A DNA stretch of 32,000 bases from Nostoc sp. PCC 7120 = FACHB-418. GTDB lineage: Bacteria; Cyanobacteriota; Cyanobacteriia; Cyanobacteriales; Nostocaceae. The DNA is taken from NCBI RefSeq assembly GCF_000009705.1, contig NC_003272.1, positions 2,610,001-2,642,000 on the forward strand, read 5' to 3'. Both the position numbers and the translations under genes were made by a program. Below are positions 1,985 to 31,048 of the stretch, in pieces (within the stretch, counting starts at the first letter, position 1; the number at the start of each line of letters is the position of its first letter). Below the pieces are notes generated by a model. The model was not told the DNA's origin. It was given only the letters and a program-made list of their open reading frames with translations, and ran no database searches.

Positions 1985-2057
1985 TAGTTACTTAATTACC
2001 CCTCCCTAAATTCATAACCAAAAAGTCAATTGATAACTGCCCACTAAAATATTGCTT

Positions 2058-3053
2058 ATGACCATTACCCTAACCCTAGCGGAAGAAGAAGAACTATATG
2101 CACAGGCAGCGCAAAACAGTATATATAAATCTGCGTTGCCATTCTTTGAATCTTGGAGCGAAATACCCAAGCAACTCGGTAAAGGCTATATACAATGGAT
2201 TGAGGTATATCCCGAACTTTGGTTAAAAATAGAGGAATATCAATATAGTGATGATGTCATATTTCAATACCCGGAATCAGAGCATCCTTTGCAATTTAGT
2301 GTTTTGACTTCAGGGATATGTAGAGATAATTTTGGGCAAGTGGGAGGCGGTTATACAGCAATTTCTGGCGGCGGAATCCAACCTTCTAAGAATATTTTTT
2401 ACACTAAATCCCAGAAAATTGTCTCCGTTGACATCCAGATGCCACCGCAATTACTGGCGACTTTTTTCCCTGGTCAGGATGGAGAAATTCCTCCCGAATT
2501 GACAATATTTGCCAAGGGTGAAGATTGGCAAACACTAATTTTCCCGGAAGCGACAACGGCAGTTAATTTAGTTGCCAGGCAAATCATCAATTGTCCCTAC
2601 GAAGGAATGACGAAACGGATGTATTTGCAGGGAAAAGTCATTGAATTAATGGCACTGCAACTAGCTCCTATTCTTGCCGAACACAAGAAAAGCCAACCAT
2701 CCCCACGTTTGCGTAGAGAAACCATTGACTCTATTTATCAAGCCAGGGAAATTTTACTCTCTCGGCTAGAAAATACGCCATCATTACTGGATTTAGCGCA
2801 AACTGTAGGAGTCAGTGAAAGAACCCTTCGCAGGGGTTTTCAAGAACTATTTAACACAACGGTGTTTGGGTATTTAACTAACCAAAGAATGGAAAAAGCC
2901 GAAAAATTATTGTGCTCCGGTCAATTTCCTATCACAGAAGTGGCAATGATGGTAGGTTATTCGAGTTCATCGCATTTTACCGCAGCTTTCAAGCGTCAAT
3001 TTGGCATTACCCCTAGAGAATGCGCGGCTGGTAAATTGTCCGTTTGGCGATAA
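2058..3053 (+). CDS. AraC-family transcriptional regulator, PchR/siderophore-responsive type (cassette 1)
   Basis: The C-terminal double HTH reads LLDLAQTVGVSERTLRRGFQELFNTTVFGYLTNQRMEKAEKLL...VAMMVGYSSSSHFTAAFKRQFGITP. It sits directly upstream of a TonB-dependent receptor. I prefer the ATG at 2058 to the TTG at 2052. Confidence 0.85.
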   Translation: MTITLTLAEEEELYAQAAQNSIYKSALPFFESWSEIPKQLGKGYIQWIEVYPELWLKIEEYQYSDDVIFQYPESEHPLQFSVLTSGICRDNFGQVGGGYTAISGGGIQPSKNIFYTKSQKIVSVDIQMPPQLLATFFPGQDGEIPPELTIFAKGEDWQTLIFPEATTAVNLVARQIINCPYEGMTKRMYLQGKVIELMALQLAPILAEHKKSQPSPRLRRETIDSIYQAREILLSRLENTPSLLDLAQTVGVSERTLRRGFQELFNTTVFGYLTNQRMEKAEKLLCSGQFPITEVAMMVGYSSSSHFTAAFKRQFGITPRECAAGKLSVWR

Positions 3054-3075
3054 TAATTGCCGTTTGATGATAGAT
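3038..3075 (+). promoter_or_regulatory. Tandem direct-repeat box (GTCCGTTTGGCGATAA / TGCCGTTTGATGATAG) spanning the AraC-1 stop codon, candidate AraC operator for the TBDT-1 promoter
   Basis: CCGTTT occurs twice with a 20-bp period. The same arrangement occurs at the 3' end of AraC-2 (19-bp period) and just after AraC-3 (21-bp period). Confidence 0.45.
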
Positions 3076-3233
3076 TTTGCAGCTAACTCTCTTTTATACT
3101 CGGCGTTACCCAAGTTAATAATCTTTCGCAATAATTGTTGATTTTAGTTATTTAGTAAAGGATTAAGCAATTGAGGCTGAAGCTGGGTAGATTCCTTTGG
3201 TGGGGATGTGAGGAGTATCAATAGGGAGTAATT

Positions 3234-5825: not shown

Positions 5826-5953
5826 TACTTAGAGGTGCTTGAGAATGACTTTAAGCTATTGATTTTTCTCTAGAATCTGCTGGGGATGATGTCAAAAACA
5901 AATTAATATCATCCCACAAGCATTTTATCTTTAAACTTGTCACAAAGAGCGTA

Positions 5954-6922
5954 ATGGGAAATCAGCTATGTCGTCTAAATAAGCCATTTTTAATCATGGC
6001 TATTTCCTTACTTTTAATTACTGCTTGTTATCAACCTGTTATCCAAAAACCTCATATTTCCCAACAGCATCCTGTGGAGTGTCGAGTTATTAAGCATGAA
6101 TTAGGTGAAACCTGTGTCCCACTTAAACCACGGCGCATTATTGCATTAGACCCAGAAAACACACTCGATCCCCTGGTAGCTCTCGGTATCAAACCGATTG
6201 GTTTTGGGTCTTATACGCACAAAGGAGAAGAATCTCTTCATGGCGTATCATTAGATGAAGTGAAAGGAGCTACGAATGTTGGAAATGCTTATCAGCCTTC
6301 ATTAGAAAAAATTTTGATGCTCAAACCCGACTTAATTTTATCGACAAATGCACATCAATATAAGTTATTAACAGCGATCGCTCCTACTGTTCCTGTACCC
6401 TACCCAAATTATACAATGCTAGTTGATCAGGCTTTCTTTAAAGAAAACCTGCGATATGTTGCTAAAATAGTTGGTAAGGAAGCAAAAGCAGAGGAAGTTT
6501 TAAATCAATACCAGATAAGAATTGAAGAATTAAAAAAACGTATAGGAAATCATCTGGAACAAGTAGAAATTTCCGTATTGTTTCATACTGGTGGTTATAT
6601 ATGGACAACCATTAAAGGTATTCAGCCAATTTCCCCAATTCTAACTGATATAGGGATACGTCATAAATTTGCACTTCCTGGTAATGGTGGGTGGAATCTC
6701 AGTATTGAAAAAATCGGTGAGTACGATTCAGATATTCTGTTTATAGTTGATGTTGACCGCAGAGGAGCAAGTTTTTATTTCCAAAATCCCATATTTAGCA
6801 GTCTGAAAGCATTCAAAAACAATCGAGTTTATTTTGTGGACAAAGTAGGATGGTATACGCTAGGTATATCAGGAGCTAATAAGACATTGGATGACTTGTT
6901 TAAATATTTGCCATACCAGTGA
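5954..6922 (+). CDS. Iron-siderophore ABC-type periplasmic substrate-binding lipoprotein (FecB/FhuD-like, cassette 1)
   Basis: It has a lipobox (LLLITAC) and the motifs PRRIIALDPENTLDPLVALGIKPIG and KPDLILS typical of cluster A-2 siderophore binding proteins. It sits immediately downstream of the receptor. Confidence 0.85.
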   Translation: MGNQLCRLNKPFLIMAISLLLITACYQPVIQKPHISQQHPVECRVIKHELGETCVPLKPRRIIALDPENTLDPLVALGIKPIGFGSYTHKGEESLHGVSLDEVKGATNVGNAYQPSLEKILMLKPDLILSTNAHQYKLLTAIAPTVPVPYPNYTMLVDQAFFKENLRYVAKIVGKEAKAEEVLNQYQIRIEELKKRIGNHLEQVEISVLFHTGGYIWTTIKGIQPISPILTDIGIRHKFALPGNGGWNLSIEKIGEYDSDILFIVDVDRRGASFYFQNPIFSSLKAFKNNRVYFVDKVGWYTLGISGANKTLDDLFKYLPYQ

Positions 6923-7117: not shown

Positions 7118-8002
7118 TTAAGAATTAGCATCCAACCCCGACAACCAAGCATCTAAATCAGCCATGCTGGTAAAATCAAGCAACGCCTCACCGAGATTTT
7201 CCAATTGTTCCAACGAAAGGGATTCAACCTGCGATCGCACTTCCTGCGGTAACATCCCTACACGTCGATTTAATTGACGCAAAACGAGCGATTTTTCTCC
7301 TTCTTCCCTTCCTTCCTCCCTTCCTTCTTCCCTTCCTTCTTCCCTTCCTTCTTCCTTGATTTCGCGGTAAACCCGTGTTTCTTTGAGTGTAATTCCTAAC
7401 ATCTCTTCGACCTCCCGTCGGCTTTTACCTTCAAATTTATAAACCATGATTGTCGTCAATAAATCTATGATGGCACGATTTTCTGGTTGAGGTACTTCCT
7501 GTTGACTTCTTGCTAGTAAGTATCTTGCTTCTTCGGTTGCACGATTTTCTTCCAGGGTAGTCAACACCATCAACCCAACCCACACAGGTAAAGAACGAAT
7601 ATCTCCTAACTCATCTAAATATATCCGATGTACCTGGGGGCTATTAAGTTGACTCAGGTAAGGACTAATATCAGTTTGTTCTAAGCTGTGGGATGGGTAA
7701 ATGATGACGATTTGTAAATTGCTAAACCTGTCACGGTTGCGATAAAAGTACAGATAGGTTTCTGCAAACACCCTTTCGTATAGTCTTTCATCCCGTTGAA
7801 ACTGCACCTCACAGAAGTAAACAACCCCAGGATTTTGATTTTGTGGAGGTAAAAATACACCGTCAATTTCAAATTTAGGCTCTTTAACAGCTACCGAATC
7901 AAATATATATTCATCTGCATTACTTGGTGGATTTGTCAATAACTCAAATAACAAACTGGGAGATTGTTGAAATAGTTTATAAAATATCGAATCTCGACGC
8001 AT
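7118..8002 (-). CDS. Rpn-family recombination-promoting nuclease / putative transposase-like protein (PD-(D/E)XK N-terminus, DUF4351 C-terminus), copy 1
   Basis: MRRDSIFYKLFQQSPSLLFELL...KFEIDGVFLPP...VYFCEVQFQRDERLYERVFAE...C-terminal LSLEQLENLGEALLDFTSMADLDAWL. It is about 90 percent identical by eye to 12758..13603. I prefer the ATG at 8002, which matches the start of the paralogue. Confidence 0.75.
   Translation of the reverse strand: MRRDSIFYKLFQQSPSLLFELLTNPPSNADEYIFDSVAVKEPKFEIDGVFLPPQNQNPGVVYFCEVQFQRDERLYERVFAETYLYFYRNRDRFSNLQIVIIYPSHSLEQTDISPYLSQLNSPQVHRIYLDELGDIRSLPVWVGLMVLTTLEENRATEEARYLLARSQQEVPQPENRAIIDLLTTIMVYKFEGKSRREVEEMLGITLKETRVYREIKEEGREEGREEGREEGREEGEKSLVLRQLNRRVGMLPQEVRSQVESLSLEQLENLGEALLDFTSMADLDAWLSGLDANS
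7298..7354. repeat. 12-bp coding tandem repeat, about 4.75 units, encoding (EEGR)5 in Rpn-like copy 1
   Basis: The plus strand reads tcc ttc ttc cct repeated, which is GAA GAA GGA AGG on the gene strand. Paralogue 12758..13603 has a single EEGR unit at the same place. Confidence 0.85.
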
Positions 8003-8195
8003 GGAAGATTGGCTTAAACCTGGGGGCATTTTAGCAGCAAATAGATGTTTAGCGATACGCGTTAGCTTCGCTACACTGCGTAAACGCGCAGCGTGTCCAT
8101 TGGCAAAGCCGCCAAAAAAGGGCTAGGACTTAGCGTCAAGCCTCCGGCTTATGCACACCAAGCAACAGAGTCGCCTAACTAACTTTCCTTATTAA

Positions 8196-8246: not shown

Positions 8247-9245
8247 ATGGCGATCGCACTCACACAACGCGAGGAAGAGGAACTTTGGGATGAAGCAGAA
8301 CAAACTAGTCTGCAACCTTCATCTATAGAACCATTTGAATTTTACGTGGAAATGCCGAGTTTTTTGGGAAGTGGCTATCATAAAGAAATTGAATTGCATC
8401 CCGAACTTTATCTGATAATTATTGATTGTGAGTACCGCGATGACTATGTACTCAAACGTCCAGCTTCAAATCATCCCTTGCAATTTGGTGTATTCCTCTC
8501 AGGAATAATTAAAGATGACGATAGTAGCTGGATTGGGGAAAGAAATGCGGTTATTTCTGGGGCTGGAATTCAACGGGAGATGAAGGTAAAACACTTTCAA
8601 TCTCCCCGGATATTGGGGATTAACATTGAGATGTCCCCTGATTTATTAGCAACTTTTTTCCCTGGAAAAGATGGAGGGATTCCCCCAGAATTAAAATTAT
8701 TGGCAAAGGAGGATGATTGGCAAACCTTAGTTTATCCAGAAATGACTCCAGCCGTAAGATTTTTGACACAACAAATATTTAATTGTCCCTATCAAGGAAT
8801 CACAAAACGAATTTATTTACAAGCGAAGGTGCTGGAGTTAATTGCTTTACAGGTATCTCCTCTCCTTACTGGTGAAGGATTTTCCCAACCATTACCATTA
8901 AAATCAGATACCATTGCCAGGATTCACCATGCCAAACAAATCCTTCTTTCTCGCTTAGAAAATCCTCCGTTGTTGATAGAATTAGCTGGGTTGGTGGGGG
9001 TAAGCGATCGCACTTTACGCAGAGGTTTTCGAGAATTATTTGGCACAACTGTATTCGGTTATCTTACTCAAATGCGGATGGAGAAAGCCGAACAGTTGTT
9101 GCGCGGAACTAATACGAATGTTGCCGAAGTTGCCAATTTAGTCGGTTATAGCCATCTTGGTCACTTTGCAGCAGCCTTTAAAAGAAAGTATGGCATTACA
9201 CCAAGTCAATGTTTGTTGGGTAAAAAGTCCGTTTCGGGACTGTGA
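8247..9245 (+). CDS. AraC-family transcriptional regulator, PchR-like (cassette 2)
   Basis: It is a paralogue of 2058..3053 (MAIALTQREEEELWDEAEQ versus MTITLTLAEEEELYAQAAQ) with the same C-terminal HTH pair. I chose the ATG at 8247 by alignment with paralogue 1. Confidence 0.85.
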   Translation: MAIALTQREEEELWDEAEQTSLQPSSIEPFEFYVEMPSFLGSGYHKEIELHPELYLIIIDCEYRDDYVLKRPASNHPLQFGVFLSGIIKDDDSSWIGERNAVISGAGIQREMKVKHFQSPRILGINIEMSPDLLATFFPGKDGGIPPELKLLAKEDDWQTLVYPEMTPAVRFLTQQIFNCPYQGITKRIYLQAKVLELIALQVSPLLTGEGFSQPLPLKSDTIARIHHAKQILLSRLENPPLLIELAGLVGVSDRTLRRGFRELFGTTVFGYLTQMRMEKAEQLLRGTNTNVAEVANLVGYSHLGHFAAAFKRKYGITPSQCLLGKKSVSGL

Positions 9246-9262
9246 TGCCGTTTGGGGATAGA
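9227..9262 (+). promoter_or_regulatory. Tandem direct-repeat box (GTCCGTTTCGGGAC.. / TGCCGTTTGGGGATAG) spanning the AraC-2 stop codon
   Basis: CCGTTT occurs twice with a 19-bp period. See 3038..3075 and 14770..14808. Confidence 0.45.
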
Positions 9263-9409
9263 CTCATAGATTGGCATTTCCTTACACTATTTGCTGTGAC
9301 TGTTAGAACTTTTATGCAATAAGCTGGCTGGATGGGACAGGCTTGCTGACTTTTATGTAAGGTTGCAAATCTGAAATTTTCCGGTTGGGTATGATGTGTG
9401 AGGATATCA

Positions 9410-11215
9410 ATGAAGCTAGATAGGTTGTGCCAAAGCCTGTTGTTAACCAGTGCGATCGCTATTTTAATCCCAAGTCCCGCCCAAGGTGAGGAAGTTGAAA
9501 CAGAAATTCGACAAGCCAAGCAAAATATTTCCCAACTGAGCGAAATTGAACTTCCTCCAACTAACGCTCGAATGTTGGTACAGACACCAACCAATCCCTC
9601 TACTCTCCAAGGCGATATTATACCTATAATGGGTGTGAAAGCTAATCCCACAGAGAAAGGTGTAGAAGTAATTTTAGAGACAGCCGCAGGGGATAAACTG
9701 CAAATCACAAATCGCAGTGAAGATAATAATTTTGTTGCAGATGTTTCTGGTGGGCAGTTGCGTTTACCCAATGGGGATGCTTTCACATTTAAGTCGGAAA
9801 AACCCATCGAGGGAATTACGGAAATTACAGTTACAAACATTGATGTGAATACCGTGCGGGTAACGGTAGTTGGGGAGAAAGCGTTACCTGCGGTTGAGTT
9901 ATTTGATGATGATATGGGGTTGATTTTTGCAGTAGCATCTACAGCCACATCTGCACAAACGCCGGAAACACCAACCGAAGAACAGCCAGCAACAGAGAAA
10001 CCTGAAGAACAACGCGCAGCCCAGCAGGATGACCCGATTGAGTTGGTGGTGACGGGGGAACGGGATAGTTATCGTGTACCGAATGCCAGTACGGCGACGC
10101 GGACAGATACACCATTGCGGGATATTCCCCAATCGATTCAAGTTGTGCCGCAGGAAGTATTGCGCGATCGCAATGCCCAAACTGTGTTTGAGGCAGTAGA
10201 AACCGTTAGTGGTGTTCTTGACGGTTCTAACAACTATGGCGCACCCGGTGGAACCAACATTATTAGAGGATTTATCTCATTTGACTCAGGAAGTTTACGC
10301 AACGGCTTTCGAGATTATGATTACTACTCCGTGTCATCTATCGGGACAATTGAACAAGTAGAAGTGCTAAAAGGGCCAGCCTCAGTTCTATTCAGCGCGC
10401 AGGAACCAGGTGGTGTTATAAATACTGTTACTAAGAAACCCCTCAGTACACCCTATTATAATGTCGCATTTCAAGCAGGTAATTATGGATTTTATCAACC
10501 AAGTATTGACTTATCAGGCCCATTAACAACAGATGGAAATGCGTTGTACAGACTTATCACCAGCCATCGAGGTACTGGAAGTTATATAGATTTTGTTAAT
10601 TCCAATACAACCACAATTGCACCCTCCATTACCTTAAAATTCGGAGAACGGACAGACCTAAATTTATCTTATGAGTACGTTAGATATTTTGCAGATAATC
10701 CAATATTTGAAGTTCCGCTACTTACCGATGGTAGCTTACCACCTCGAAATTTTTATTCTGCCTATCCTGATTTAGTCTTATCTGATATCACAACCAACAG
10801 AATTGCTCTAAATCTGAACCACGAATTCAGTGAAAACTGGAAACTTCGCAATAATCTGGCAATAGTTCTGAATCAAAGAACTTTGGCTCTTGCGTTGGTT
10901 TTATGGTGGAGCATTAAAATCACAGTTTTATAGAAAGGCTCAAAAACTTAAAACCCAGTCACAGCAATGAATGCAGGCTATCTTTGGGTTTTATTTATTA
11001 TTCTGTTCCATAAAATGAACTGAAGAGCCAGAACTTTAAACCGAACCATTTTTAACACCCTCATTGATGACCGCATTTTGACAGACTCATTTGCTTAAGA
11101 ATCTACTTCTTATGCAAATAACTACCTTGGACAAATAGACTTACTAGGAAACTTAAAAACTGGCTCAATTTCACACCAACTGTTAGCAGGCTTTGATGTC
11201 AACTACTTTGAGACT
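9410..11215 (+). pseudogene. TonB-dependent siderophore receptor, cassette 2, disrupted (MITE insertion, in-frame TAA, 3' deletion)
   Basis: The N-terminal 250 aa are nearly identical to TBDT-1. The reading frame is interrupted at 10885 by a 145-bp element. Receptor homology resumes at 11038 (NRTIFNTLIDDRILTDSFA*ESTSYANNYLGQIDLLGNLKTGSISHQLLAGFDVNYFETEYQ) with a TAA at 11096..11098. It ends abruptly near 11215, where binding-protein sequence begins. Confidence 0.8.
10885..11029. mobile_element. 145-bp MITE-like insertion inside TBDT-2 with an 8-bp target-site duplication
   Basis: AGAACTTT occurs at 10877..10884 and 11030..11037, flanking the element. The ends form imperfect inverted repeats: GGCTCTTGCGTTGGTTTTATGG versus the reverse complement of the other end, GGCTCTTCAGTTCATTTTATGG (18/22). 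Removing the element plus one duplicated copy restores a 52-residue spacing between the W.LRN and GSI.H motifs, compared with 53 and 52 in TBDT-1 and TBDT-3. Confidence 0.65.
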
Positions 11216-12757: not shown

Positions 12758-13603
12758 TTAATTACCATCCAATTCCGACAACCAAGCATCTAAATCAGCC
12801 ATGCTGGTAAAATCAAGCAACGCTTCACCGAGATTTTCCAATTGTTCCAACGAAAGGGATTCAACTTGTTGACGCACTTGCTGCGGTAATTCCCCTACAC
12901 GTCGATTTAGTAAACGGAAAATGAGCGATCGCGCTTCTACCTCACGTCCTTCTTCCTTAATTTCCCGGTAAACCCGTGTTTCTTTGAGTGTAATTCCCAA
13001 CATTTCCTCTACCTCCCTTTGGCTTTTCCCTTCAAACTTATAAACCATGATTGTCGTCAATAAATCTATGATGGCACGATTCTCTGGTTGAGGTACTTCC
13101 TGCTGACTCCTCTCTAGTAAATACCTAGCTTCTTCAGTTGCTTGTTCCTCATCAATTGTAGTTAACACCATCAACGCAACCCACACAGGTAATTGGCGAA
13201 TCTCTCCCAATTCATCTAAATATATTCGATGCACCTGTGGGCTATTAAGTTGACTGATGTAAGGAGTGATATCACTTTGTTCTAAGCTGCGGGATGGGTA
13301 AATGATCACAATTTGCAAATTACTAAATCTATCCCGGTTACGATAGAAATATAACCAAGATTCTGCAAATACTCTTTCATATAGTCTTTCGTCCTTTTGA
13401 AACTGCACCTCACAGAAATACACCACACCCGGACTTTGATTTTGTGGAGGCAGAAATACACCGTCAATTTCAAATTTTGGTTCTTTAACAGCTACCGAAT
13501 CAAAAATATATTCATCCGCATTAGTTGGCGGGTTTGTCAATAGCTCAAATAACAAACTAGGGGATTGTTGAAATAATTTATAAAATATAGAATCTCGACG
13601 CAT
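12758..13603 (-). CDS. Rpn-family recombination-promoting nuclease / putative transposase-like protein (DUF4351 C-terminus), copy 2
   Basis: It is 281 aa and a near-identical paralogue of 7118..8002, without the EEGR expansion. It is divergent from AraC-3, just as copy 1 is divergent from AraC-2. Confidence 0.8.
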   Translation of the reverse strand: MRRDSIFYKLFQQSPSLLFELLTNPPTNADEYIFDSVAVKEPKFEIDGVFLPPQNQSPGVVYFCEVQFQKDERLYERVFAESWLYFYRNRDRFSNLQIVIIYPSRSLEQSDITPYISQLNSPQVHRIYLDELGEIRQLPVWVALMVLTTIDEEQATEEARYLLERSQQEVPQPENRAIIDLLTTIMVYKFEGKSQREVEEMLGITLKETRVYREIKEEGREVEARSLIFRLLNRRVGELPQQVRQQVESLSLEQLENLGEALLDFTSMADLDAWLSELDGN

Positions 13604-13760: not shown

Positions 13761-14768
13761 ATGACATTTTCAGAGCCAGTTTACTGGGACGTGGATCAGA
13801 AAGCTTATCGTGGCTTTGAAATGATGTATCAACAATCTGGGTCTGAAACAGTATCTAGATTACCAGAGTATATGGGAACAGGAGGCGATCGCGTTACTCA
13901 GCTACGCAACGGATTGGTTGTTTGCATTAGGGAAGCTCAACTGTGGCAACCTTTAAGATTAAAACAACAACATCAGTCTTCATTTCCGCTTACGGCAAAG
14001 TTTTATCTATCTAGTGGTTCTAGGGTAATTACCCCTGGTGCTGTGCATATCCCAGATGACTATGAAGAAACTACTGGTTGTAACTACATTTACCACCTGC
14101 CCAACATCTTAGAATACGAGGAATGGCGGGCAAAAGAAAAAATTCAAATGGTGATGATCTGTGCAGACATCAATTATTTTCAATCCTTCACCTCTGATAA
14201 TGAATTTCTGCCAGAACCCCTGCGGCGATTGATTGAATTAGATTCATCCGCGCAGTTTCATCAATCTTTAGGCAAAAACACTCCAGCCATCCAACAGATT
14301 CTTCAGCAAATCCTCCATTGCCCCTATCAGGGAATCACTCGACAAATGTATCTTGAAGGCAAAGCTCTGGAAATACTGACCTTACAATTTACCAATTGGA
14401 AAGAAACTTCTCATCACTCCGTTTCGCTAAAGTTACGCAAAGATGATATCGAGCGGCTATATGCAGCGCAAGAGATTTTGATTCGGACGATGAACAATCC
14501 CCCATCCCTGCTGGGGTTAGCCCGACAGGTAGGAATCAACGAGCGTAAACTAAAACAGGGATTTCGCCAAGTCTTTGGTACAACAGTTTTCGGCTACCTA
14601 CAGGACTATCGGTTGCAGCAAGCCCAAAAATTGCTCAAAAAACGGGAGATGTCAATTGCTAGCGTTGCCACAGCTATAGGTTATACCAATCCAGAAGCCT
14701 TCAGTGTGGCATTTCGGCGTAAATTTGCAGTCAGTCCCAAAGCCTATCAATTGGGTAAAAATCGATAA
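13761..14768 (+). CDS. AraC-family transcriptional regulator, PchR-like (cassette 3)
   Basis: The conserved central motif is HCPYQGITRQMYLEGKALEILTLQF. The C-terminal HTH pair reads LLGLARQVGINERKLKQGFRQVFGTTVFGYLQDYRLQQAQKLL...GYTNPEAFSVAFRRKFAVSP. Confidence 0.85.
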   Translation: MTFSEPVYWDVDQKAYRGFEMMYQQSGSETVSRLPEYMGTGGDRVTQLRNGLVVCIREAQLWQPLRLKQQHQSSFPLTAKFYLSSGSRVITPGAVHIPDDYEETTGCNYIYHLPNILEYEEWRAKEKIQMVMICADINYFQSFTSDNEFLPEPLRRLIELDSSAQFHQSLGKNTPAIQQILQQILHCPYQGITRQMYLEGKALEILTLQFTNWKETSHHSVSLKLRKDDIERLYAAQEILIRTMNNPPSLLGLARQVGINERKLKQGFRQVFGTTVFGYLQDYRLQQAQKLLKKREMSIASVATAIGYTNPEAFSVAFRRKFAVSPKAYQLGKNR

Positions 14769-14769
14769 A

Positions 14770-14808
14770 GTCCGTTTCACAAAGAAAAAAGTTCGTTTCA
14801 CAAAGAAA
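14770..14808 (+). promoter_or_regulatory. Perfect-phase tandem direct repeat GTCCGTTTCACAAAGAAA / GTTCGTTTCACAAAGAAA (21-bp period), candidate AraC operator for the TBDT-3 promoter
   Basis: Two 18-nt units differ at one position. They start 2 nt after the AraC-3 stop and about 110-145 nt upstream of the TBDT-3 ATG. Confidence 0.5.
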
Positions 14809-14915: not shown

Positions 14916-17477
14916 ATGAGTATGAAAATCGCTATTTTCCTGGCTGGGGCGTTAGCTCTGGTCGCTATTCAACCTGTCTGGGCAGAAAGTATCAACCAGA
15001 TGGAAGTGGAGGAACAAAAATCACTTACCGCCTCTGTTAAGAAAAGGCTGAGGACTGTTAAAGAGAAAGAATGGCTGGCGCAGGCAAATACAGCAGTTAT
15101 CCAGGTAACTGGCGTGAAAGCCAATCCTACTGACAAAGGTGTAGAGATACTTCTAGAAACTTCCCAAGGAGAAAAACTACAAATTACAAATCGTAGTGCA
15201 GGTAATAGCTATATCACTGATATTTCTAATGCACAACTACGTTTACCGAGTGGAGAATCCTTCACATTCCGCTCCGATAAACCAATTGCAGGTATTACTG
15301 AGATTACCGTCACAAATCAAGATGCTAATACTATCCGAGTCAGCATAGTTGGGGAAACCATCTTACCAACTGCCGAGTTGTTTGATAGTGATGAGGGATT
15401 AATTTTTGGTCTGACATCTGTGACAGCTTCATTACCACCCCAACAGCCAGAAACTCAGTCAGAACAGCCATCACCAGCAGCAGAAGAGCCAATTGAATTG
15501 GTGGTGACAGGGGAAAAAGATGGCTATCAAGTTCCTAATACTGCAACCGTTACACGAACGAATACGCCCATTATCGATATACCCCAGTCTATTCAAGTTG
15601 TTCCCCGTCAGGTACTCGAAGACCAACAAATTACCCGCGTTGATGATGCACTCCGCAATGTTCCTGGTGTACTTGGTAGTACCAACGCTTTTATCGGTAA
15701 TCAAATCACAATTCGTGGTTTTAGCACTTCTAACCTGCCGATTTTAAGAGATGGCTTTAGGATATACGAAAACTTCTCGTTTCAAGAAACATCAAATTTA
15801 GAGCGTATTGAAGTTTTAAAAGGCCCAGCTTCGGTGCAGTATGGTCAACTAGACCCAGGTGGGGTAATTAACCTAGTTACTAAAAAACCACTATCAGAAC
15901 CGTTTTACGAAATTCAGGCTCAATTTGGTAGTTATGGACTGATAAGACCCAGTTTTGATGTTTCCGGGCCGTTGACTGACGATGGTAAATTGCTTTATCG
16001 ACTGAACGCAACTTATCAACGGGAGGAAGGGTTTCGGGACTTTAATACAGAAACAGAAAGGTTTTTTATTGCCCCTAGCTTGACATGGAAGATTAGCGAT
16101 CGCACTAACGTAGACTTTTCCCTAGAATATCTCGATAGTACACGACCATTTGATACAAGTTTAGTAGCTTTTGGTAGGAGTGTGGCTGATGTTCCTTATA
16201 GTCGCGTTTTTAATGACCCTGATGACTTTATTGATACAAAATCTTTCAGTATCGCCTACAACTTAGAACATCGCTTCAGCGATAACTGGACTCTACGCAA
16301 TAGTTTCCGATATCTGCAACAAGATTTATTTACCCAAGCCACCCTGGCTGGTTCCCTCAATGAAACTACAGGGATTCTCACTCGCACCTATGCCCAACGC
16401 GAGTATAAATCAGATGATTACTCACTGCAAACAAATGTTGTCGGTAAGTTTACTACAGGTTCTATCAAACATACACTGCTAGCTGGCGTTGATTTTAATC
16501 GGGGTCTTCTCGATGATTTAGTCTTCAGAGGTACACGAACGACATTAAATATATTCAATCCAGTTTATGGAGTCCCTCCTAGAACAGATTTTTCCACATT
16601 ACCGCCAGCTACTCCATTTAAGAACGAAACAACTAGGCTAGGATTTTATCTGCAAGACCAAATTGCATTGAATAACCAATTTACTGTATTGGCTGGTTTA
16701 CGCTACGATACTGTTGATTTTAAAGATACTTTCACAGATGAAAGTAAATACGATAGTGCCTGGAGTCCAGTAATTGGTTTGGTTTATAAACCAGTGGAAA
16801 ATCTTTCTATTTACACCAGCTATTCCCGGTCATTTGTACCAAGTTTTTCCAGAGATGCTAACGGCGATTTTCTGCAACCGGAACGTGGCGCAGGATACGA
16901 AGTAGGTATCAAAGCAGAATTACTTCAAGGCAATCTTTTTGCGACATTAGCTTACTTCGATATTACCAAACAGAATGTATCCACAGCTGATCCTGACGTT
17001 TTGGGAGCATCCGTAGCCACTGGTGAACAGCGCAGTCGTGGTATTGAACTCAGCGCAGTTGGCACAATTGCACCAGGATGGAATATTATTGCTGGCTACG
17101 CTTACACTGATGCTGAAATTAGCAAAGATAACACTATAGCTGTGGGCAATCGCTTACCAGGAACTCCCAAACACAGTGCGAATCTTTGGACAACCTACGA
17201 AATTCAAAAGGGTAGTTTACAAGGCTTAGGTTTTGGACTTGGCGTTAATTATGTTGGTAAACGGTTCGGCAACTTTCAAAATGATTTTGAGGTGGATAGT
17301 TATTTTCTCACCAATGCTGCTCTATTTTATCGCCAAAATAACTGGCGAGTTGGACTGAATTTCAACAACATTTTTGACATTAATTATATTAGTAGTGCTG
17401 CCACATTGACCAGAACTCGCTCTATTGAACCAGGGCAACCATTTACTGTAGTTGGCTCAATTTCGTTGGAATTTTAG
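14916..17477 (+). CDS. TonB-dependent siderophore receptor with AMIN-like N-terminal extension (cassette 3)
   Basis: 853 aa. It has a signal peptide (ALVAIQPVWA), the module VTGVKANPTDKGVEILLETSQGEKLQ, a TonB-box-like EPIELVVTGE, the plug motif LERIEVLKGPASVQYG and the barrel terminus GSISLEF. Confidence 0.9.
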   Translation: MSMKIAIFLAGALALVAIQPVWAESINQMEVEEQKSLTASVKKRLRTVKEKEWLAQANTAVIQVTGVKANPTDKGVEILLETSQGEKLQITNRSAGNSYITDISNAQLRLPSGESFTFRSDKPIAGITEITVTNQDANTIRVSIVGETILPTAELFDSDEGLIFGLTSVTASLPPQQPETQSEQPSPAAEEPIELVVTGEKDGYQVPNTATVTRTNTPIIDIPQSIQVVPRQVLEDQQITRVDDALRNVPGVLGSTNAFIGNQITIRGFSTSNLPILRDGFRIYENFSFQETSNLERIEVLKGPASVQYGQLDPGGVINLVTKKPLSEPFYEIQAQFGSYGLIRPSFDVSGPLTDDGKLLYRLNATYQREEGFRDFNTETERFFIAPSLTWKISDRTNVDFSLEYLDSTRPFDTSLVAFGRSVADVPYSRVFNDPDDFIDTKSFSIAYNLEHRFSDNWTLRNSFRYLQQDLFTQATLAGSLNETTGILTRTYAQREYKSDDYSLQTNVVGKFTTGSIKHTLLAGVDFNRGLLDDLVFRGTRTTLNIFNPVYGVPPRTDFSTLPPATPFKNETTRLGFYLQDQIALNNQFTVLAGLRYDTVDFKDTFTDESKYDSAWSPVIGLVYKPVENLSIYTSYSRSFVPSFSRDANGDFLQPERGAGYEVGIKAELLQGNLFATLAYFDITKQNVSTADPDVLGASVATGEQRSRGIELSAVGTIAPGWNIIAGYAYTDAEISKDNTIAVGNRLPGTPKHSANLWTTYEIQKGSLQGLGFGLGVNYVGKRFGNFQNDFEVDSYFLTNAALFYRQNNWRVGLNFNNIFDINYISSAATLTRTRSIEPGQPFTVVGSISLEF

Positions 17478-17487
17478 GGCAGTGTTG

Positions 17488-18555
17488 ATGATGCTTAAAA
17501 GCTTGAGGGTTAACCGCATATTAAAGCTTTTGTTGCTGGCTATTTTCAGCAGTTTCATGATTATAGCCTGTGGCGATCGCCTGACTCAATATACTGTCAG
17601 CCAAAAAATCTCCCCCTCCACTGAATGCCAAGTTATTCAACATCAAGTGGGGGAAACTCAGGTATGTGGTCAACCTCAAAAAATTGTGGCACTGGGCCCG
17701 AATGTATTAGAAATTTTACTTGCTCTTGATGTACAACCAGTTGGTTTTGCAGATCATGTGCCATTACATCAAGGCAATTACGACAATCCTAGTCAGCAAA
17801 TTCCTTATTTGGGAGAGAGGGTAACTGGTGAGTTAATTAATTTAGGTCTTGCTTATACTCCTTCTATTGAGGCGTTACTCAAAATCAAACCCGACTTAAT
17901 TATCGGGAATGAATTGAATAGAAGTCAGTATGAAATGCTCTCAAAAATTGCTCCGACACTGCTATTTCCAAGATTTGATGCTCAACCTAATTTACTAGCA
18001 ATTTCTAAAATATTGGGACGCTCTGAAAAAGCCAAAAAAATATTAGCTGACAGCGATCAGCGATTAGCTATTGCTCAGAAAGCATTATCTGATATTGTGG
18101 CAAATCATCCTCAAGTATTAATGCTAGTGTCTCTTGGTCAGTCAATTTCCGAACAATTGCGTTTTCCCCGCCGTGATAGTTTCTGTGATTCTCTGGTGAC
18201 AAATTTGGGATTTAAATTGATGTCTCCTTCAAGTTTAGTTCCCGCAGATAAGAGTGTTCCACCACCACTTTCTATAGAAACATTACCCCAATTCAATAGT
18301 GCAGATTCAATCATCTTACTGGGAGCAAACTTTAGCCAGGTTCAACTCAGTGATGATAAATACTTTGAACCTCAGATGCAAAAACTCAAGCAGCAGTGGT
18401 CAGAAAATGCGATCGCTCAATCTCTGACAGCGAGTAAGGAGGGTCGAGTATATTTCATCCCGGCCTATCTCTGTCTAGGATTACCTGGGCCTATTGGTAC
18501 AGAACTTTACCTTCAGGAACTGCAAAAACAACTACTCTCCCCACAAGGAAAATGA
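17488..18555 (+). CDS. Iron-siderophore periplasmic substrate-binding lipoprotein (FecB/FhuD-like, cassette 3)
   Basis: It has a lipobox (FMIIAC) and the motifs PQKIVALGPNVLEILLALDVQPVGF and KPDLIIG. I prefer the ATG at 17488 to the TTG at 17452, which overlaps the receptor gene. Confidence 0.8.
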   Translation: MMLKSLRVNRILKLLLLAIFSSFMIIACGDRLTQYTVSQKISPSTECQVIQHQVGETQVCGQPQKIVALGPNVLEILLALDVQPVGFADHVPLHQGNYDNPSQQIPYLGERVTGELINLGLAYTPSIEALLKIKPDLIIGNELNRSQYEMLSKIAPTLLFPRFDAQPNLLAISKILGRSEKAKKILADSDQRLAIAQKALSDIVANHPQVLMLVSLGQSISEQLRFPRRDSFCDSLVTNLGFKLMSPSSLVPADKSVPPPLSIETLPQFNSADSIILLGANFSQVQLSDDKYFEPQMQKLKQQWSENAIAQSLTASKEGRVYFIPAYLCLGLPGPIGTELYLQELQKQLLSPQGK

Positions 18556-19565
18556 CAACTCAAAAACTCTTATCCGATTGTCAATTTTGCTCTGTTGTTT
18601 CCAAAAATAACGGTGAAGACCCTATTGGTACAGCGAATACCAGCGATAATTGGTTAGTTTTAGAAGCCGCACTACCCTGGACAGAAGAACACTTGCACAG
18701 CGATCGCATTCTCAGCCAGATTCACGATTTATTTCATGAATTAGAAAATCGCCACATCCCAGTTATACCAATTGCGATCGCACCTGATCGGGAATATTCT
18801 GTACCAGGATATGTCCGCGCCTTACACTACAAACGCCCTACAAAAAGCTTTGCTGAGTTTGAAAAGCAGGAATTTCTGATTCCTGAAAGCCAAATCGGTC
18901 AGTTTACGTCGGGTTTCTTAGAATACCCCAATGACCTAGATCAATTTCAAACATACCAACAGCCTAAAAATCACATCCGTGAAATCATGGTTTGTACCCA
19001 CGGAAATGTCGATGTTGCTTGTTCTCGGTTTGGCTATCCTATCTATCAAAATTTACGCCAGAACTATGCAGCAAAATCTGCTGGACAGTTAAGAGTTTGG
19101 CGATGTTCTCACATTGGCGGTCATCAATTCGCACCGACTTTGTTTGATCTACCCACAGGACAGTTTTGGGGACATATTGAACCAGAGATTTTAGATGTCT
19201 TAGTTTGGCGTAACAGTCCAGTCAAACAACTGCGTCAATTTTATCGGGGTTGGTCGGGAATGACAAAATTTGAGCAAATAGTTGAGCGCGAGATTTGGAT
19301 GCAACATGGCTGGGAATGGCTTCAATACCAAAAATCCGGTCAAGTATTAGCAAAAGATACAACTAATGATGAATGGAATGCAGATTGGGCAGAAGTTCGT
19401 ATTGATTTCACCTCTCCAGATAACAGCATCCAAGGTAGTTATTTAGCAAGAGTTGAAGCTTGCTCTCAGGTAATGACTGTTTTTAATTCTGGTAAAGAGC
19501 AACCTTTGGAAACTGTAAAACAGTATCGCGTCAGTCAATTGACTCAGCAACTCATTAATATATAG
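18552..19565 (+). CDS. Sucrase/ferredoxin-like (Suc_Fer-like) thioredoxin-fold protein with an Apd1/Aim32-type [2Fe-2S] ligand motif
   Basis: The N-terminus EDPIGTANTSDNWLVLEAALPW is typical of the family. It carries CTHGNVDVAC (C-X8-C) followed about 30 residues later by HIGGH (H-X-G-G-H). The start overlaps the SBP-3 stop (ATGA). Confidence 0.7.
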   Translation: MTTQKLLSDCQFCSVVSKNNGEDPIGTANTSDNWLVLEAALPWTEEHLHSDRILSQIHDLFHELENRHIPVIPIAIAPDREYSVPGYVRALHYKRPTKSFAEFEKQEFLIPESQIGQFTSGFLEYPNDLDQFQTYQQPKNHIREIMVCTHGNVDVACSRFGYPIYQNLRQNYAAKSAGQLRVWRCSHIGGHQFAPTLFDLPTGQFWGHIEPEILDVLVWRNSPVKQLRQFYRGWSGMTKFEQIVEREIWMQHGWEWLQYQKSGQVLAKDTTNDEWNADWAEVRIDFTSPDNSIQGSYLARVEACSQVMTVFNSGKEQPLETVKQYRVSQLTQQLINI

Positions 19566-19586
19566 CCCCAATTACCCATATTTACC

Positions 19587-20894
19587 GTGCGTATTTTCAT
19601 GATTCTCTGGTGCGGTCAGATCGTCTCTGCGATCGGTAGTGCCATGACTCGCTTTGCTCTGACTATTTGGGTTTGGCAATTAACTGGAGAGGTAACAACC
19701 ATAGCCTTATTCAGTTTCTTTTACCAACTTCCACTTATCTTTGTTTCCCTATTTGCTGGCGTTATCGTAGACCGTTATAACCGCAAGTATCTAATAATTT
19801 TGGGTGATACCAGCGCCATTTTATGTACCATCATTATTGGACTACTCTATGGCACTAACTCTTTACAAATTTGGCATCTTTACGCTTTAATTGCCATTTC
19901 CGGTTGTTTTGGACATATCCAAAATCTTGCCTATTCTGCCTCTATTCCCCTCATCGTGCCGAAACAGCATTATACTCGCGCTAGTAGTATGGCTTCCTTG
20001 ATTGAACACGCTTCAGCAATTATTGCCCCAGCCTTAGCGGGTATTCTCTATCCACTAATTGGTTTATTGGGGATTACTTTTATTGATATTGTTACCTTTA
20101 CTGTTGCCGCAGTTACGGCTTTTCTCGTATCCATCCCCCAACCGCAACAGACAGAAACTACTAACCAAGCAAGTGAAACCTTATGGCAAAAGTTAGCTTT
20201 TGGGTTTAAATACATCCTCTCACGACCTAGTTTACTGGCTATGGCGATCGCCTTTTCCTGTTTTTGGTTTGCCCACCAAATAGCAGAGACTATATTTCAG
20301 CCGATGATTCTCGCCCGTACAGGTGGTAACACCGAGATTCTAGGTGTGGTGATGACGGCGGCTGGTGTGGGTGGCGTGGTTGGCGGTTCATTTTTAAGTA
20401 TTTGGGGCGGATTTAAGCGGCGAACTCACGGAATGCTGCTTGGTTTTATTGGTACTGGTTTGAGTAAAATTGCCTTAGGCATAGGTCAAATACCCTTAAT
20501 TTTGATTGGTACTAGCTTTTGTTCTGCTTTCAACCTACCCCTATTATTTAGTTCCAATAGTGCCATCTGGTATGCCAAAGTAGAGCCAAATATCCAAGGG
20601 CGGGTTTTTGCGGCTGACCATACAATTGGCATGATTATTGGTACAATTGCCAGTTTAACTGCTGGGCCACTAGCTGACAGAGTGTTTGAACCAGCCATGA
20701 AACCAGGAGAACTTTTAGCATTTATTTTTAGCCCTGTCTTTGGGATTGGTGCTGGTAGTGGTATGGCTCTTTTATATGTAATTACCGCTATTTTTATTGT
20801 ATTAGTTGGTATAAGTGGCTATGCCTTCCCAACTCTGCGAAATGTGGAAGATATCTTACCTGACCATGATGTGGCGATTAATAAAGGTGATTAA
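19587..20894 (+). CDS. MFS transporter (MFS_3 / EntS-like topology), siderophore-associated
   Basis: It is 435 aa and hydrophobic throughout, with about 12 predicted helices. It has the loop motif VDRYNRKYLIILGD after TM2. It uses a GTG start and is the last gene of the cassette-3 operon. Confidence 0.75.
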   Translation: MRIFMILWCGQIVSAIGSAMTRFALTIWVWQLTGEVTTIALFSFFYQLPLIFVSLFAGVIVDRYNRKYLIILGDTSAILCTIIIGLLYGTNSLQIWHLYALIAISGCFGHIQNLAYSASIPLIVPKQHYTRASSMASLIEHASAIIAPALAGILYPLIGLLGITFIDIVTFTVAAVTAFLVSIPQPQQTETTNQASETLWQKLAFGFKYILSRPSLLAMAIAFSCFWFAHQIAETIFQPMILARTGGNTEILGVVMTAAGVGGVVGGSFLSIWGGFKRRTHGMLLGFIGTGLSKIALGIGQIPLILIGTSFCSAFNLPLLFSSNSAIWYAKVEPNIQGRVFAADHTIGMIIGTIASLTAGPLADRVFEPAMKPGELLAFIFSPVFGIGAGSGMALLYVITAIFIVLVGISGYAFPTLRNVEDILPDHDVAINKGD

Positions 20895-20920
20895 CAAGCT
20901 ATATCACAAGCTATATCAAA

Positions 20921-20945
20921 GGATGATGGAGCGATCGCATCATCC
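20921..20945 (+). terminator. Hairpin downstream of the MFS gene (8-bp stem GGATGATG/CATCATCC, HIP1-containing loop)
   Basis: The sequence is ggatgatg-gagcgatcg-catcatcc, 27 nt after the stop codon. There is no clear U-tract, which is common in cyanobacteria. Confidence 0.3.
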
Positions 20946-20962
20946 ATACACTTAATTAATGA

Positions 20963-21091
20963 TAGGACTTACGCATCCCGGTTATCTGTTGAGACTGGGT
21001 GTAAGGGGGTAAGGGTATAGGGGTGTCAATGTTTAAAACTCTTACACCCCTCTCCAAACCCTTGATTTTTCGTTTTCATGCGTAAGTCCTA
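20963..21091. mobile_element. 129-bp MITE with 13-bp terminal inverted repeats TAGGACTTACGCA and a 5-bp target-site duplication AATGA
   Basis: The left end taggacttacgca (20963..20975) and the right end tgcgtaagtccta (21079..21091) are perfect reverse complements. AATGA occurs at 20958..20962 and 21092..21096. Confidence 0.75.
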
Positions 21092-29515: not shown

Positions 29516-30115
29516 TTACAAACCATTCTTAGCCGATTTAATATCCAACAGGTTAATTCTGTCTATCTTGCTTTCATGTATAATAATGTGCAATTTTGCT
29601 GGATATTTAAACCGCATCTCACTAATTCTAAACGTCCAAAGCATTATCTTCAACAAGTCTTCATCACTGATGTTTTTGTGTTCTTTGATGCGTGTTATTC
29701 CTGAACCAAATATAGGAACTGAGACGCTCTTTTGTGCGTACACCCTATTAACCTTATCCCAAAATCTAATTAAAAAACCGAGATAATCTGGCATTGTCAA
29801 CCAAGCTCTATTTTGCTCATCAAACTTTGAGAATGCAGTCAAAAGATATTCGTTGTAAACACAGACAGTGCCAATACTATATCGTTTCTTCTTACCAAAT
29901 CTTCTAGCTGTATTTTCATCTAAAGTTTCATCATCATCGAACGAATAGTTCTCTATGTATTTGTCTAATTCGGATACAGGAATGTCAAGATGCTTGGCAA
30001 TGAAAATTCCATTGAGCGACTGTTGAGAAATTATCTTGTCATCGACCTGAGTATCAAAATACTCATTAAATGCAATGACTTTGAATCCAGGCTGCTTAAA
30101 AATGTTACCTTTTCT
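29516..30115 (-). CDS. ThsA-type Macro (DUF6430-like) domain module, open frame without a canonical start, +1 relative to the upstream 2TM ORF
   Basis: The frame is open from 30115 and translates as RKGNIFKQPGFKVIAFNEYFDTQVDDKIISQQSLNGIFIAKHLD...GKKKRYSIGTVCVYNEYLLTAFSKFDEQNRAWLTMPDYLGFLIRFWDKV...SVSVPIFGSGITRIKEHKNISDEDLLKIMLWTFRISE...KLHIIIHES. These motifs match my recollection of the Thoeris ThsA Macro family. The ORF track lists only the part after an internal TTG (29516..29842). Confidence 0.6.
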   Translation of the reverse strand, partial: RKGNIFKQPGFKVIAFNEYFDTQVDDKIISQQSLNGIFIAKHLDIPVSELDKYIENYSFDDDETLDENTARRFGKKKRYSIGTVCVYNEYLLTAFSKFDEQNRAWLTMPDYLGFLIRFWDKVNRVYAQKSVSVPIFGSGITRIKEHKNISDEDLLKIMLWTFRISEMRFKYPAKLHIIIHESKIDRINLLDIKSAKNGL

Positions 30116-30353
30116 TTACGGATACAATGCTTCCCTCAACATCTAGATTGACTTCTTCTAAGTAATTGGATTTAAGCCACAGAAAAGCATATATAATAAG
30201 TAGTATTGCTGCAAAAATGATGCCAAGTGTTAGTTTTACCTCTTTAGGTATCTCAACAAATATCAGTAGAAGAGAAAGCCCTACACTTATCCATGATGTA
30301 AATTCTAGGAATTGTTTGATAATTCTATTATCAAGCAAATTAACTTTGACCAA
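30105..30353 (-). CDS. Two-TM-helix N-terminal module of a ThsA-like effector (terminated by a frame change)
   Basis: It is 82 aa with helices WISVGLSLLLIFVEI and LTLGIIFAAILLIIYAFLW. The TTG start is preceded by AGGAGGAGG. It ends ...DVEGSIVSVKKR-TAA exactly where full-length TM-Macro proteins would continue into the Macro domain. Confidence 0.6.
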   Translation of the reverse strand: MVKVNLLDNRIIKQFLEFTSWISVGLSLLLIFVEIPKEVKLTLGIIFAAILLIIYAFLWLKSNYLEEVNLDVEGSIVSVKKR

Positions 30354-30421
30354 AGCCTCCTCCTAAACTTCAATTTTCTTGTTTTTTACCAAAGGCTGTC
30401 ATACCAACGGTTAAGACATTG

Positions 30422-30982
30422 TTATCGATAAAGATACACATCTGGTGTTGTTTTCGTGTTTGTCATGAAGTCATTATTTTTCAGCGACTCAGTAATAAGA
30501 TATTTATTCATCGGGACATGTAAAGTTGGAACTTTATTCATTGATTCCCTTAGTATCGGTAGCTTATTCCATAAATTCTTAATCTCGTCTTTTAAAGAGC
30601 CGTTATGCAAGAGGCTTTCCTTGGTATCGTAGTCGGGGTAGATCACAATTACCGGAAGTCCAAGTGAATTTATTCCGTAATCTATTTCCTCTTTTAGGGC
30701 GCGAGAATTTACTGTCCTTTCGCTGAGGAATAGGATCACGTTCTTTGAGTTTCTAAGACGTTCTCGGAGCCTTGGCTTCAAGGTTAACTCCCAGTCACTG
30801 CCATCTCGAACGCTGTAAGTTTTACTATGAGAGTCGTTGAAGGGAAAGGATGAGTCACTTCCTTTCCAAGTTCTCAGCAAATTGTAGTAAACAAAGTCCT
30901 TGGTTGCGTATGCGCCTAAAGCACTTTCATTAAATGGTTCAGCAACGTAGAAAGCACAGTAATTTCCGTTTTTGTATGACAT
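30422..30982 (-). CDS. TIR-like domain protein (DUF1863 / ThsB-like)
   Basis: MSYKNGNYCAFYVAEPFNES...FPFNDSHSKTYSVRDGSDWE..LKPRLRERLRNSKNVILFLSERTVNSRALKEEIDYGINSLGLPVIVIYPDY parallels the ThsB layout: beta-1 FFSFHY, then NTSVTCVLIGSQTFNRRWVRYEI...GNKIIGIHI. It includes the conserved Glu position. The ATG at 30982 is preceded by GAGGAA. Confidence 0.65.
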   Translation of the reverse strand: MSYKNGNYCAFYVAEPFNESALGAYATKDFVYYNLLRTWKGSDSSFPFNDSHSKTYSVRDGSDWELTLKPRLRERLRNSKNVILFLSERTVNSRALKEEIDYGINSLGLPVIVIYPDYDTKESLLHNGSLKDEIKNLWNKLPILRESMNKVPTLHVPMNKYLITESLKNNDFMTNTKTTPDVYLYR

Positions 30983-31048
30983 TCTTTCCTCAATACTGCC
31001 TTTGTCAATGAACAATGATGCTTAAATTAAGGCTCGGCTAACTACTTA

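Follow-up and report, generated by a model that had tools for sequence, protein, structure and literature searches.

The window analysed here is a 32,000-nucleotide stretch of the genome of Anabaena (Nostoc) sp. PCC 7120 (NC_003272.1, positions 2,610,001 to 2,642,000). It contains five consecutive plus-strand genes that encode a transcriptional regulator, a siderophore receptor, a periplasmic binding protein, a soluble Suc_Fer-like protein and a membrane transporter. The locus bears on the question of how cyanobacteria free iron from imported siderophores, and on the physiological role of the Apd1/Aim32 family, to which the Suc_Fer-like protein is related. At the head of the group is the gene of an AraC/PchR-type regulator (13761..14768), which matches the Pfam families HTH_18 (E = 2.9e-22) and HTH_AraC. 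It is followed by the gene of a TonB-dependent transporter (TBDT) of the siderophore receptor type (14916..17477), in which an N-terminal AMIN domain precedes the Plug and barrel domains, and which matches TIGR01783 with an E value of 5.5e-143. The third gene (17488..18555) encodes a FecB-like periplasmic siderophore-binding protein (Peripla_BP_2, E = 3.7e-17) with a length of 354–355 residues in the gene calls; its start is ambiguous, since the list of open reading frames places it at TTG 17452 and the gene calls at 17488. The Suc_Fer-like protein, of the Apd1/Aim32 and CctD type, has 337 residues and is encoded at 18552..19565. Its start codon (18552–18554) overlaps the TGA stop codon of the binding-protein gene (18553–18555) in the sequence ATGA, and the two genes are translationally coupled. 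The last gene (19587..20894) encodes a 12-helix transporter of the major facilitator superfamily (MFS). It starts with GTG 19587, 21 nt past the stop of the Suc_Fer-like gene, whereas gene callers chose ATG 19599, 33 nt past it. No further open reading frames of at least 80 codons are present in the segment 18552–20894 on either strand. The 337-residue reading frame, the overlap, the ligand motif described below with a spacer of about 30 residues, and the gene of a transporter with 12 transmembrane segments 21 nt further on had been pointed out in an earlier reading of the DNA letters (hereafter the original prediction), and all of them are found in the sequence.

Two published PCC 7120 primers (Mirus et al. 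2009, PMC2771747) match the window exactly at positions 4500 (alr2175-F) and 15603 (alr2185-F), and the latter match identifies the receptor gene as alr2185. In the same study, alr2185 transcripts were detected only when the lack of nitrogen in the medium was combined with starvation for Fe or Cu. According to the numbering, the regulator is probably alr2184, and the three genes 3' of alr2185 would correspond to alr2186–alr2188. The arrangement of the regulator, AMIN-containing receptor, FecB-like protein, Suc_Fer-like protein and MFS transporter is best explained as one iron-acquisition cassette of the CctABCD type. Because biosynthesis genes are absent nearby, with no nonribosomal peptide synthetase (NRPS), polyketide synthase (PKS) or NRPS-independent siderophore synthetase genes within the 32-kb window, the cassette probably serves only the uptake of xenosiderophores, or siderophore "piracy". 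Since Anabaena PCC 7120 is genetically tractable and the locus has a probable twin in Synechocystis PCC 6803, the question is testable.

The only Pfam match of the 337-residue protein is the Suc_Fer-like family PF06999, which covers residues 25–233 with an E value of 9.2e-32 and a score of 111 bits, compared to a cut-off of 34.9. The ligand motif is composed of C148-THGNVDVA-C157, a spacer of 29 residues, and H187-I-G-G-H191. Relatives from four phyla were aligned (88 sequences, including cyanobacterial, Deinococcus, Bacteroidota and actinobacterial ones), and C148 and C157 are present in all of them, H187 in 87, and H191 in 86. Within a set of 93 cyanobacterial homologues, none of the four putative ligands varies. 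In the yeast proteins Apd1 and Aim32, the motif CX8C...HX3H binds a bis-histidinyl [2Fe-2S] cluster (PMC8482512), and we infer that the Anabaena protein binds a [2Fe-2S] cluster as well. The protein is predicted to be cytoplasmic because it contains neither a hydrophobic segment, the maximum Kyte-Doolittle score over 19 residues being 0.67, nor a signal peptide.

The structure predicted by AlphaFold2 from an alignment of 93 homologues (pLDDT 91.7, pTM 0.89) is made up of three parts. The N-terminal alpha/beta domain comes after a conserved C10-x2-C13 motif. The motif (window positions 18579–18590) is located just N-terminal of the first helix, outside the Pfam domain. Cyanobacterial homologues retain it almost without exception; C13 also occurs in Deinococcus and Chondrinema, and C10 is restricted to the cyanobacterial family. 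The motif could represent a second redox or metal site. The central domain is similar to the thioredoxin-like [2Fe-2S] ferredoxin of Aquifex (PDB: 1F37 and 1M2A; probability 1.0, target-normalised TM-score 0.66–0.68), with an E value that is modest at 1e-3, and additionally matches the NuoE, FdsG and HydC modules in the fold search of the PDB. The C-terminal domain, residues ~235–337, consists of a helix and four long strands and is retained in cyanobacterial and several Deinococcus homologues. When this domain was modelled alone (pLDDT 90.9), its comparison with the PDB was uninformative, with a best E value of 0.28 and a query-normalised TM-score of at most 0.45. The fold search with the whole protein returned the thioredoxin-like ferredoxin core and weak matches of the N-terminal part to protein disulfide isomerase-like structures, and nothing else, whereas a sequence search of the PDB returned nothing at E ≤ 1. 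Pfam, motif and modelled fold together bear out the assignment made in the original prediction: the protein belongs to the Suc_Fer-like or Apd1/Aim32 class, with a predicted thioredoxin-like [2Fe-2S] domain.

The protein shares its Pfam/InterPro family, ligand motif and thioredoxin-like ferredoxin fold with yeast Apd1 and Aim32. The yeast proteins are eukaryotic, have divergent N-terminal domains and are associated with redox stress, and the cyanobacterial family has in addition the conserved C10-x2-C13 motif and the C-terminal domain of ~100 residues. FhuF, a cytoplasmic [2Fe-2S] protein with a function in ferric-siderophore use, provides the working analogy for the proposal discussed below; FchR of Bacillus halodurans is a ferric-siderophore reductase of the FhuF type. 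However, the 337-residue protein has neither a FhuF Pfam match nor the C-C-x10-C-x2-C motif, its cysteines (10, 13, 148, 157, 185 and 304) include no CC pair, and its putative ligands are two cysteines and two histidines in a thioredoxin-like fold. Searches of Pfam and NCBIfam with the protein gave no match to the FAD-binding or siderophore-interacting domains of the SIP/ViuB/YqjH proteins. Two longer homologues from outside the window (P0129 and P0245) combine the Suc_Fer-like domain with another enzyme domain, either a methyltransferase at the N-terminus or a TIM barrel similar to xylose isomerase, which may be true fusions or gene-calling artefacts. The longer homologues that were inspected for fusions contain no transporter, FAD or FhuF domain.

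The association of the Suc_Fer-like class with siderophores has already been described. The cyanochelin B transport (Cct) cassette from plasmid 2 of Leptolyngbya sp. NIES-3755 encodes the AMIN-TBDT CctA, binding protein CctB, MFS "exporter" CctC, CctD of the thioredoxin-like ferredoxin family IPR009737, and permeases CctEF, and proteins of the CctD class are reported to occur repeatedly in the siderophore transport loci of cyanobacteria (July 2026 bioRxiv preprint, doi 10.64898/2026.07.30.741596). The window locus is a further cassette of this CctABCD type, apparently for uptake only. Both cassettes contain the AMIN-TBDT, binding protein, MFS and Suc_Fer-like genes on one strand, and the Suc_Fer-like protein shares 51.5% of its residues with CctD (BAU16020) in an alignment that covers 98% of its length. 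The two units differ in that the Suc_Fer-like gene precedes that of the MFS transporter in the window and follows it in Cct, and in that the window unit is headed by an AraC gene and lacks the FecCD permeases, the DevBCA-like pump and the adjacent biosynthetic cluster. The receptor and binding protein are only 27–28% identical to those of Cct, and the substrate is therefore probably a different siderophore. A gene order like that of the window cassette is also found in the Fur-regulated pcrR-fhuA1-fecB2-sll1203-sll1204 unit of Synechocystis 6803, in which fecB2 is co-transcribed with sll1203 and sll1204 (2021, PMC8634477); the identification of sll1203 as Suc_Fer-like and of sll1204 as an MFS transporter is from position only. 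The original prediction regarded a bacterial function of the family in iron uptake as novel, which no longer holds, since the preprint describes a homologous cassette and its recurrence, and the 2021 paper a unit with the same gene order. Apart from the preprint, our literature search found nothing that links the Suc_Fer-like family (PF06999/IPR009737) to siderophores.

A scan of one genome per species identified 400 stretches with relatives of the protein, of which the best 80, all cyanobacterial, were analysed with flanks of 10 kb. These loci contain the closest relatives, and the sample is biased towards the subfamily of the window protein. Neighbouring genes were labelled by similarity to the window proteins and by unsupervised clustering of all open reading frames; the names of those clusters that were not seeded from the window were derived from the reading of representative sequences and from precomputed Pfam matches on one locus. 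In 30 of the 80 loci, the gene is located in or adjoins an uptake cassette with the order AraC-TBDT-FecB-SucFer-MFS or one ending in FecB-MFS-SucFer. Such uptake-type loci occur in Nostocales, Symploca, Crinalium, Oculatella, Lusitaniella, Egbenema, Myxacorys and others, and are often situated beside NRPS, aminotransferase and methyltransferase genes or FecCDE. The AraC gene is positioned 5' of the TBDT gene in most homologous cassettes of the cyanobacterial loci, and the MFS and Suc_Fer-like genes are adjacent, with gaps under 300 bp, in 16 loci.

Another 46 of the 80 loci have the arrangement PKS-methyltransferase-NRPS-P450-P450-SDR-SucFer-MATE-SDR, where P450, SDR and MATE stand for cytochrome P450, short-chain dehydrogenase/reductase and multidrug and toxic compound extrusion. 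The neighbour-joining tree places all of them in a single Nostocales clade. This gene cluster is widespread in Nostocales (loci within L024–L085, for example L027 and L038). In 39 loci of the clade, the Suc_Fer-like gene is followed by that of an efflux pump, likely of the MATE type. Some of the clusters additionally contain a type II thioesterase and a PvdQ/CcsQ-like acylase, and some are flanked by AraC-TBDT-FecB-ABC-Fur genes (ABC, ATP-binding cassette). Acylases of this type mark cyanobacterial siderophore clusters (2026 preprint), and together with the flanking TBDT, FecB and Fur genes the CcsQ-like acylase suggests that the Nostocales cluster is a siderophore cluster. When the loci were collapsed at 70% identity, 13 of the 17 resulting lineages were of the uptake type, two had the biosynthetic arrangement and two were of other kinds. 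By a rough estimate, the chance that a random gene of PCC 7120, a genome with 22 TBDT genes, has one of them at a distance of 5 kb or less is ~4%. The co-occurrence with TBDT and FecB genes, which the original prediction had put forward as a check, is thus found in 30 of 80 loci and 13 of 17 lineages.

Relatives from plasmids, identified in a tblastn search that returned 30 records, extend the association beyond cyanobacteria. In all six inspected Deinococcus plasmids, the gene is inside an iron-siderophore ABC import operon with the order SBP-SucFer-permease-SBP-permease-ATPase (SBP, substrate-binding protein), and four of these plasmids show a 4-nt overlap between its reading frame and a neighbouring gene. 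The Deinococcus operons lack an MFS gene. A plasmid of Chondrinema (Bacteroidota) encodes a TBDT, permease and ATPase, a binding protein and a Suc_Fer-like protein. Among cyanobacteria, plasmid pAQ7 of Picosynechococcus PCC 7002 encodes a binding protein, TBDT, ExbB, ExbD and a Suc_Fer-like protein, and in Leptolyngbya boryana the binding protein-SucFer pair adjoins MFS and NRPS genes. The common core is formed by the binding protein, ABC import genes and the Suc_Fer-like protein, and the MFS transporter is a cyanobacterial addition. The pairing with the binding protein in this core places the Suc_Fer-like protein downstream of import. The link to siderophore uptake made in the original prediction is supported by this synteny, which spans many cyanobacterial orders, Deinococcus and a Bacteroidota plasmid.

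The MFS transporter has 12 hydrophobic peaks and matches the Pfam families MFS_3 (76 bits, cut-off 27) and MFS_1 (88 bits). Its NCBIfam matches include efflux families only, among them TIGR00900 of the DHA3 group (E = 1e-52), Mef(A) (9e-24) and EntS (5e-21). The scores are far below every equivalog cut-off, Mef included (75 bits versus 324 for EntS), so that the assignment is limited to the family level. The transporter is 44% identical to CctC (BAU16019, E = 6e-113). EntS/Mef transporters of the DHA3/MFS_3 group are thus its best family matches, yet it constitutes a distinct, exporter-type subfamily. Across complete cassettes, the identities of the Suc_Fer-like protein (54–66%, median 60%) and of the MFS transporter (52–79%, median 57%) are higher than those of the TBDT (37–58%, median 51%) and FecB-like protein (26–51%, median 48%). 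The same holds for the comparison with Cct, with 51.5% and 44% versus 27% and 28% for receptor and binding protein, respectively. Because the pair is better conserved than the components that determine specificity, and because an efflux pump is again present in the clade with the biosynthetic clusters, these identities suggest that the Suc_Fer-like protein and MFS transporter may form a substrate-general module acting on something common to different siderophores.

It is very likely that the Suc_Fer-like protein takes part in siderophore-dependent iron acquisition. A function as a ferric-siderophore reductase is plausible because of the association with uptake genes, the cluster chemistry of the yeast homologues, and the absence of FhuF- or SIP-type reductase families among the recurrent neighbour clusters of the best 80 loci. 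In the mechanism that we propose, Alr2185 and the binding protein would deliver the ferric siderophore to an ABC permease whose genes are located elsewhere. The cytoplasmic [2Fe-2S] protein would then carry out a one-electron reduction of the ferric complex, or of a complex held by its extra domains, and iron would be freed as Fe(II). The exporter-type MFS, functionally coupled to the Suc_Fer-like protein and transporting outwards, would expel the iron-free ligand. As a complete sequence of import, one-electron reduction and ligand export, we give this mechanism slightly less than an even chance.

Several points weigh against a reductase function. The Apd1 cluster has a relatively high potential for the reduction of complexes of the hydroxamate or catecholate type. 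In the window, two other TBDT-FecB units do not include the Suc_Fer-like/MFS pair, which indicates that the pair is accessory to some cassettes in the genome and is not generally required. In the large Nostocales clade, the Suc_Fer-like gene is part of an NRPS/PKS cluster and preceded there by two P450 genes, so that its product could serve as a biosynthetic electron donor. There are also rare fusions to a methyltransferase or TIM-barrel enzyme. The yeast relatives have been tied to redox stress and quality control and to a proposed degradation of phenolic allelochemicals, not to iron release (PMC8482512). Finally, CctA and CctB alone restore cyanochelin B-dependent growth in Synechocystis, and CctD is dispensable (doi 10.64898/2026.07.30.741596). 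The last result has two caveats: provided that sll1203 is a homologue, the fecB2-sll1203-sll1204 unit of the host may complement CctD, and in addition cyanochelins are photolabile.

The most probable alternative is that the Suc_Fer-like protein functions in siderophore biosynthesis, either as a tailoring enzyme or as a redox partner that might, for example, supply electrons to P450 or TauD-type hydroxylases, and that its occurrence in uptake cassettes is left over from linkage to biosynthetic clusters. It is favoured by the 46 loci with the PKS-methyltransferase-NRPS-P450-P450-SDR-SucFer-MATE arrangement, the position of the homologue P0112 between P450/methyltransferase and TauD genes, the frequent proximity of uptake-type loci to NRPS, aminotransferase and methyltransferase genes, and the methyltransferase-SucFer fusion. 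However, the biosynthetic context is confined to one monophyletic Nostocales clade that accounts for two of the 17 lineages, the window has no biosynthetic gene in 32 kb, the Deinococcus operons comprise ABC import genes only, and the translational coupling is to binding-protein or permease genes rather than to biosynthetic ones. We therefore regard a biosynthetic function as unlikely.

According to a second alternative, the MFS transporter is a single-component ferric-siderophore importer similar to FptX and RhtX, and the Fe-S protein reduces the imported complex. The original prediction favoured such an importer in place of an ABC system, and the lack of ABC permease genes in the window cassette, the presence of a PchR-type AraC regulator and the adjacency of the MFS and Suc_Fer-like genes in 16 loci are consistent with it. 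In contrast, the family matches of the transporter are to the MFS_3/DHA3 efflux group with EntS and Mef, and its NCBIfam matches at E ≤ 0.01, 12 families in all, include no RhtX/FptX model; the NCBIfam library presumably contains such a model. A periplasmic binding protein is always encoded beside the MFS gene, which implies an ABC importer, and Cct and the loci L021 and L083 have both the MFS and FecCD permeases. Furthermore, the Suc_Fer-like protein of Deinococcus occurs without any MFS, and CctA and CctB are enough for uptake in Synechocystis. Because of the binding protein, the co-occurrence with FecCD and the sufficiency of CctA and CctB, an importer role of the MFS is unlikely, and this alternative as a whole is quite improbable. 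Export, or recycling of the apo-siderophore, which the original prediction named as the other option, fits the evidence better.

The Suc_Fer-like protein might also be an iron or redox sensor that modulates, for example, the AraC regulator, or an acceptor or chaperone for siderophore iron, instead of a reductase. Lability or proton coupling is typical of histidine-ligated [2Fe-2S] clusters and would suit such functions, as would the AraC gene at the head of most cyanobacterial cassettes and the presence of two extra domains and the conserved N-terminal C10-x2-C13 motif. On the other hand, the Deinococcus and Chondrinema loci have no adjacent AraC gene, Pfam identifies no DNA-binding or known sensor domain in the protein, and its C-terminal domain has no informative fold match; there is little chance that this explanation is correct. 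The least probable alternative is a redox protein for detoxification or the general stress response, comparable to yeast Apd1/Aim32, which would guard against redox-cycling catechol or phenolic ligands and be only loosely tied to iron uptake: it is in line with the functions attributed to the yeast homologues and with a Tsukamurella homologue that is encoded beside a nitro/quinone reductase, PadR and an efflux MFS and has no iron genes in its context, but that homologue is only 26% identical, and the cyanobacterial and Deinococcus members are located inside iron import operons, often with overlapping reading frames.

Extended from the Anabaena protein to its relatives, the proposed reductase function would make the CctD-like Suc_Fer proteins of cyanobacteria, Deinococcus and some Bacteroidota a third, hitherto unrecognised class of bacterial ferric-siderophore reductases, bis-histidinyl, [2Fe-2S]-containing and thioredoxin-like, and distinct from FhuF and the flavin-dependent SIP proteins. 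In cyanobacteria, such a reductase would be firmly linked to an efflux pump, and the two would make up a "reduce-and-expel" module compatible with any pair of receptor and binding protein. This generalisation is tentative, and we consider it rather doubtful; if it is true, the reductase class would provide the first physiological function for the Apd1/Aim32 family. Compared with the 2026 preprint, our analysis adds the Suc_Fer-like protein inside iron ABC-import operons of Deinococcus and on a Bacteroidota plasmid, the better conservation of the Fe-S protein and MFS transporter than of the specificity components, the move of the gene into NRPS/PKS clusters beside a different efflux pump in one Nostocales clade, and a likely host paralogue that could explain the apparent dispensability of CctD.

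The region between the AraC stop codon and the TBDT start codon contains a tandem 21-bp direct repeat, AAAGT(C/T)CGTTTCACAAAGAAA, on the plus strand at 14767..14808. Similar CCGTTT-containing repeats, ~21 bp apart, are positioned 5' of two other TBDT genes (3040–3075 and 9230–9262), and together these repeats are candidate operators of AraC/PchR-type regulators. A scan for promoters and terminators was uninformative, with fewer sites than in shuffled sequence, and an Rfam scan of the window gave no match.

A second complete AraC-TBDT-FecB unit, which includes alr2175, occupies 2052–6922 and contains neither a Suc_Fer-like nor an MFS gene. A truncated TBDT gene on the plus strand (9398–10933) encodes AMIN and Plug domains without the beta-barrel and is followed by PIN and PhdYeFM toxin-antitoxin genes. 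The region of the truncated gene is flanked by paralogous DUF2887/DUF4351 genes on the minus strand (7118–8029 and 12758–13603), which suggests a rearrangement.

Just 3' of the MFS stop codon (20894–21091), the tandem 12-mer ACAAGCTATATC is present in two copies, and the HIP1 sequence GCGATCGC is part of a palindromic hairpin at 20925–20944. A perfect 14-nt inverted repeat (20963–20976 and 21078–21091) surrounds 101 nt and resembles a miniature inverted-repeat element. Towards the end of the window, Thoeris-like defence genes are located on the minus strand within 29516–31015. They include a ThsB_TIR gene (30422–31015, E = 8e-27) and a reading frame (29516–29842) whose match to the ThsA_Macro profile (E = 6.5e-30) is confined to the C-terminal half of that profile and which may represent a disrupted or mis-started ThsA.

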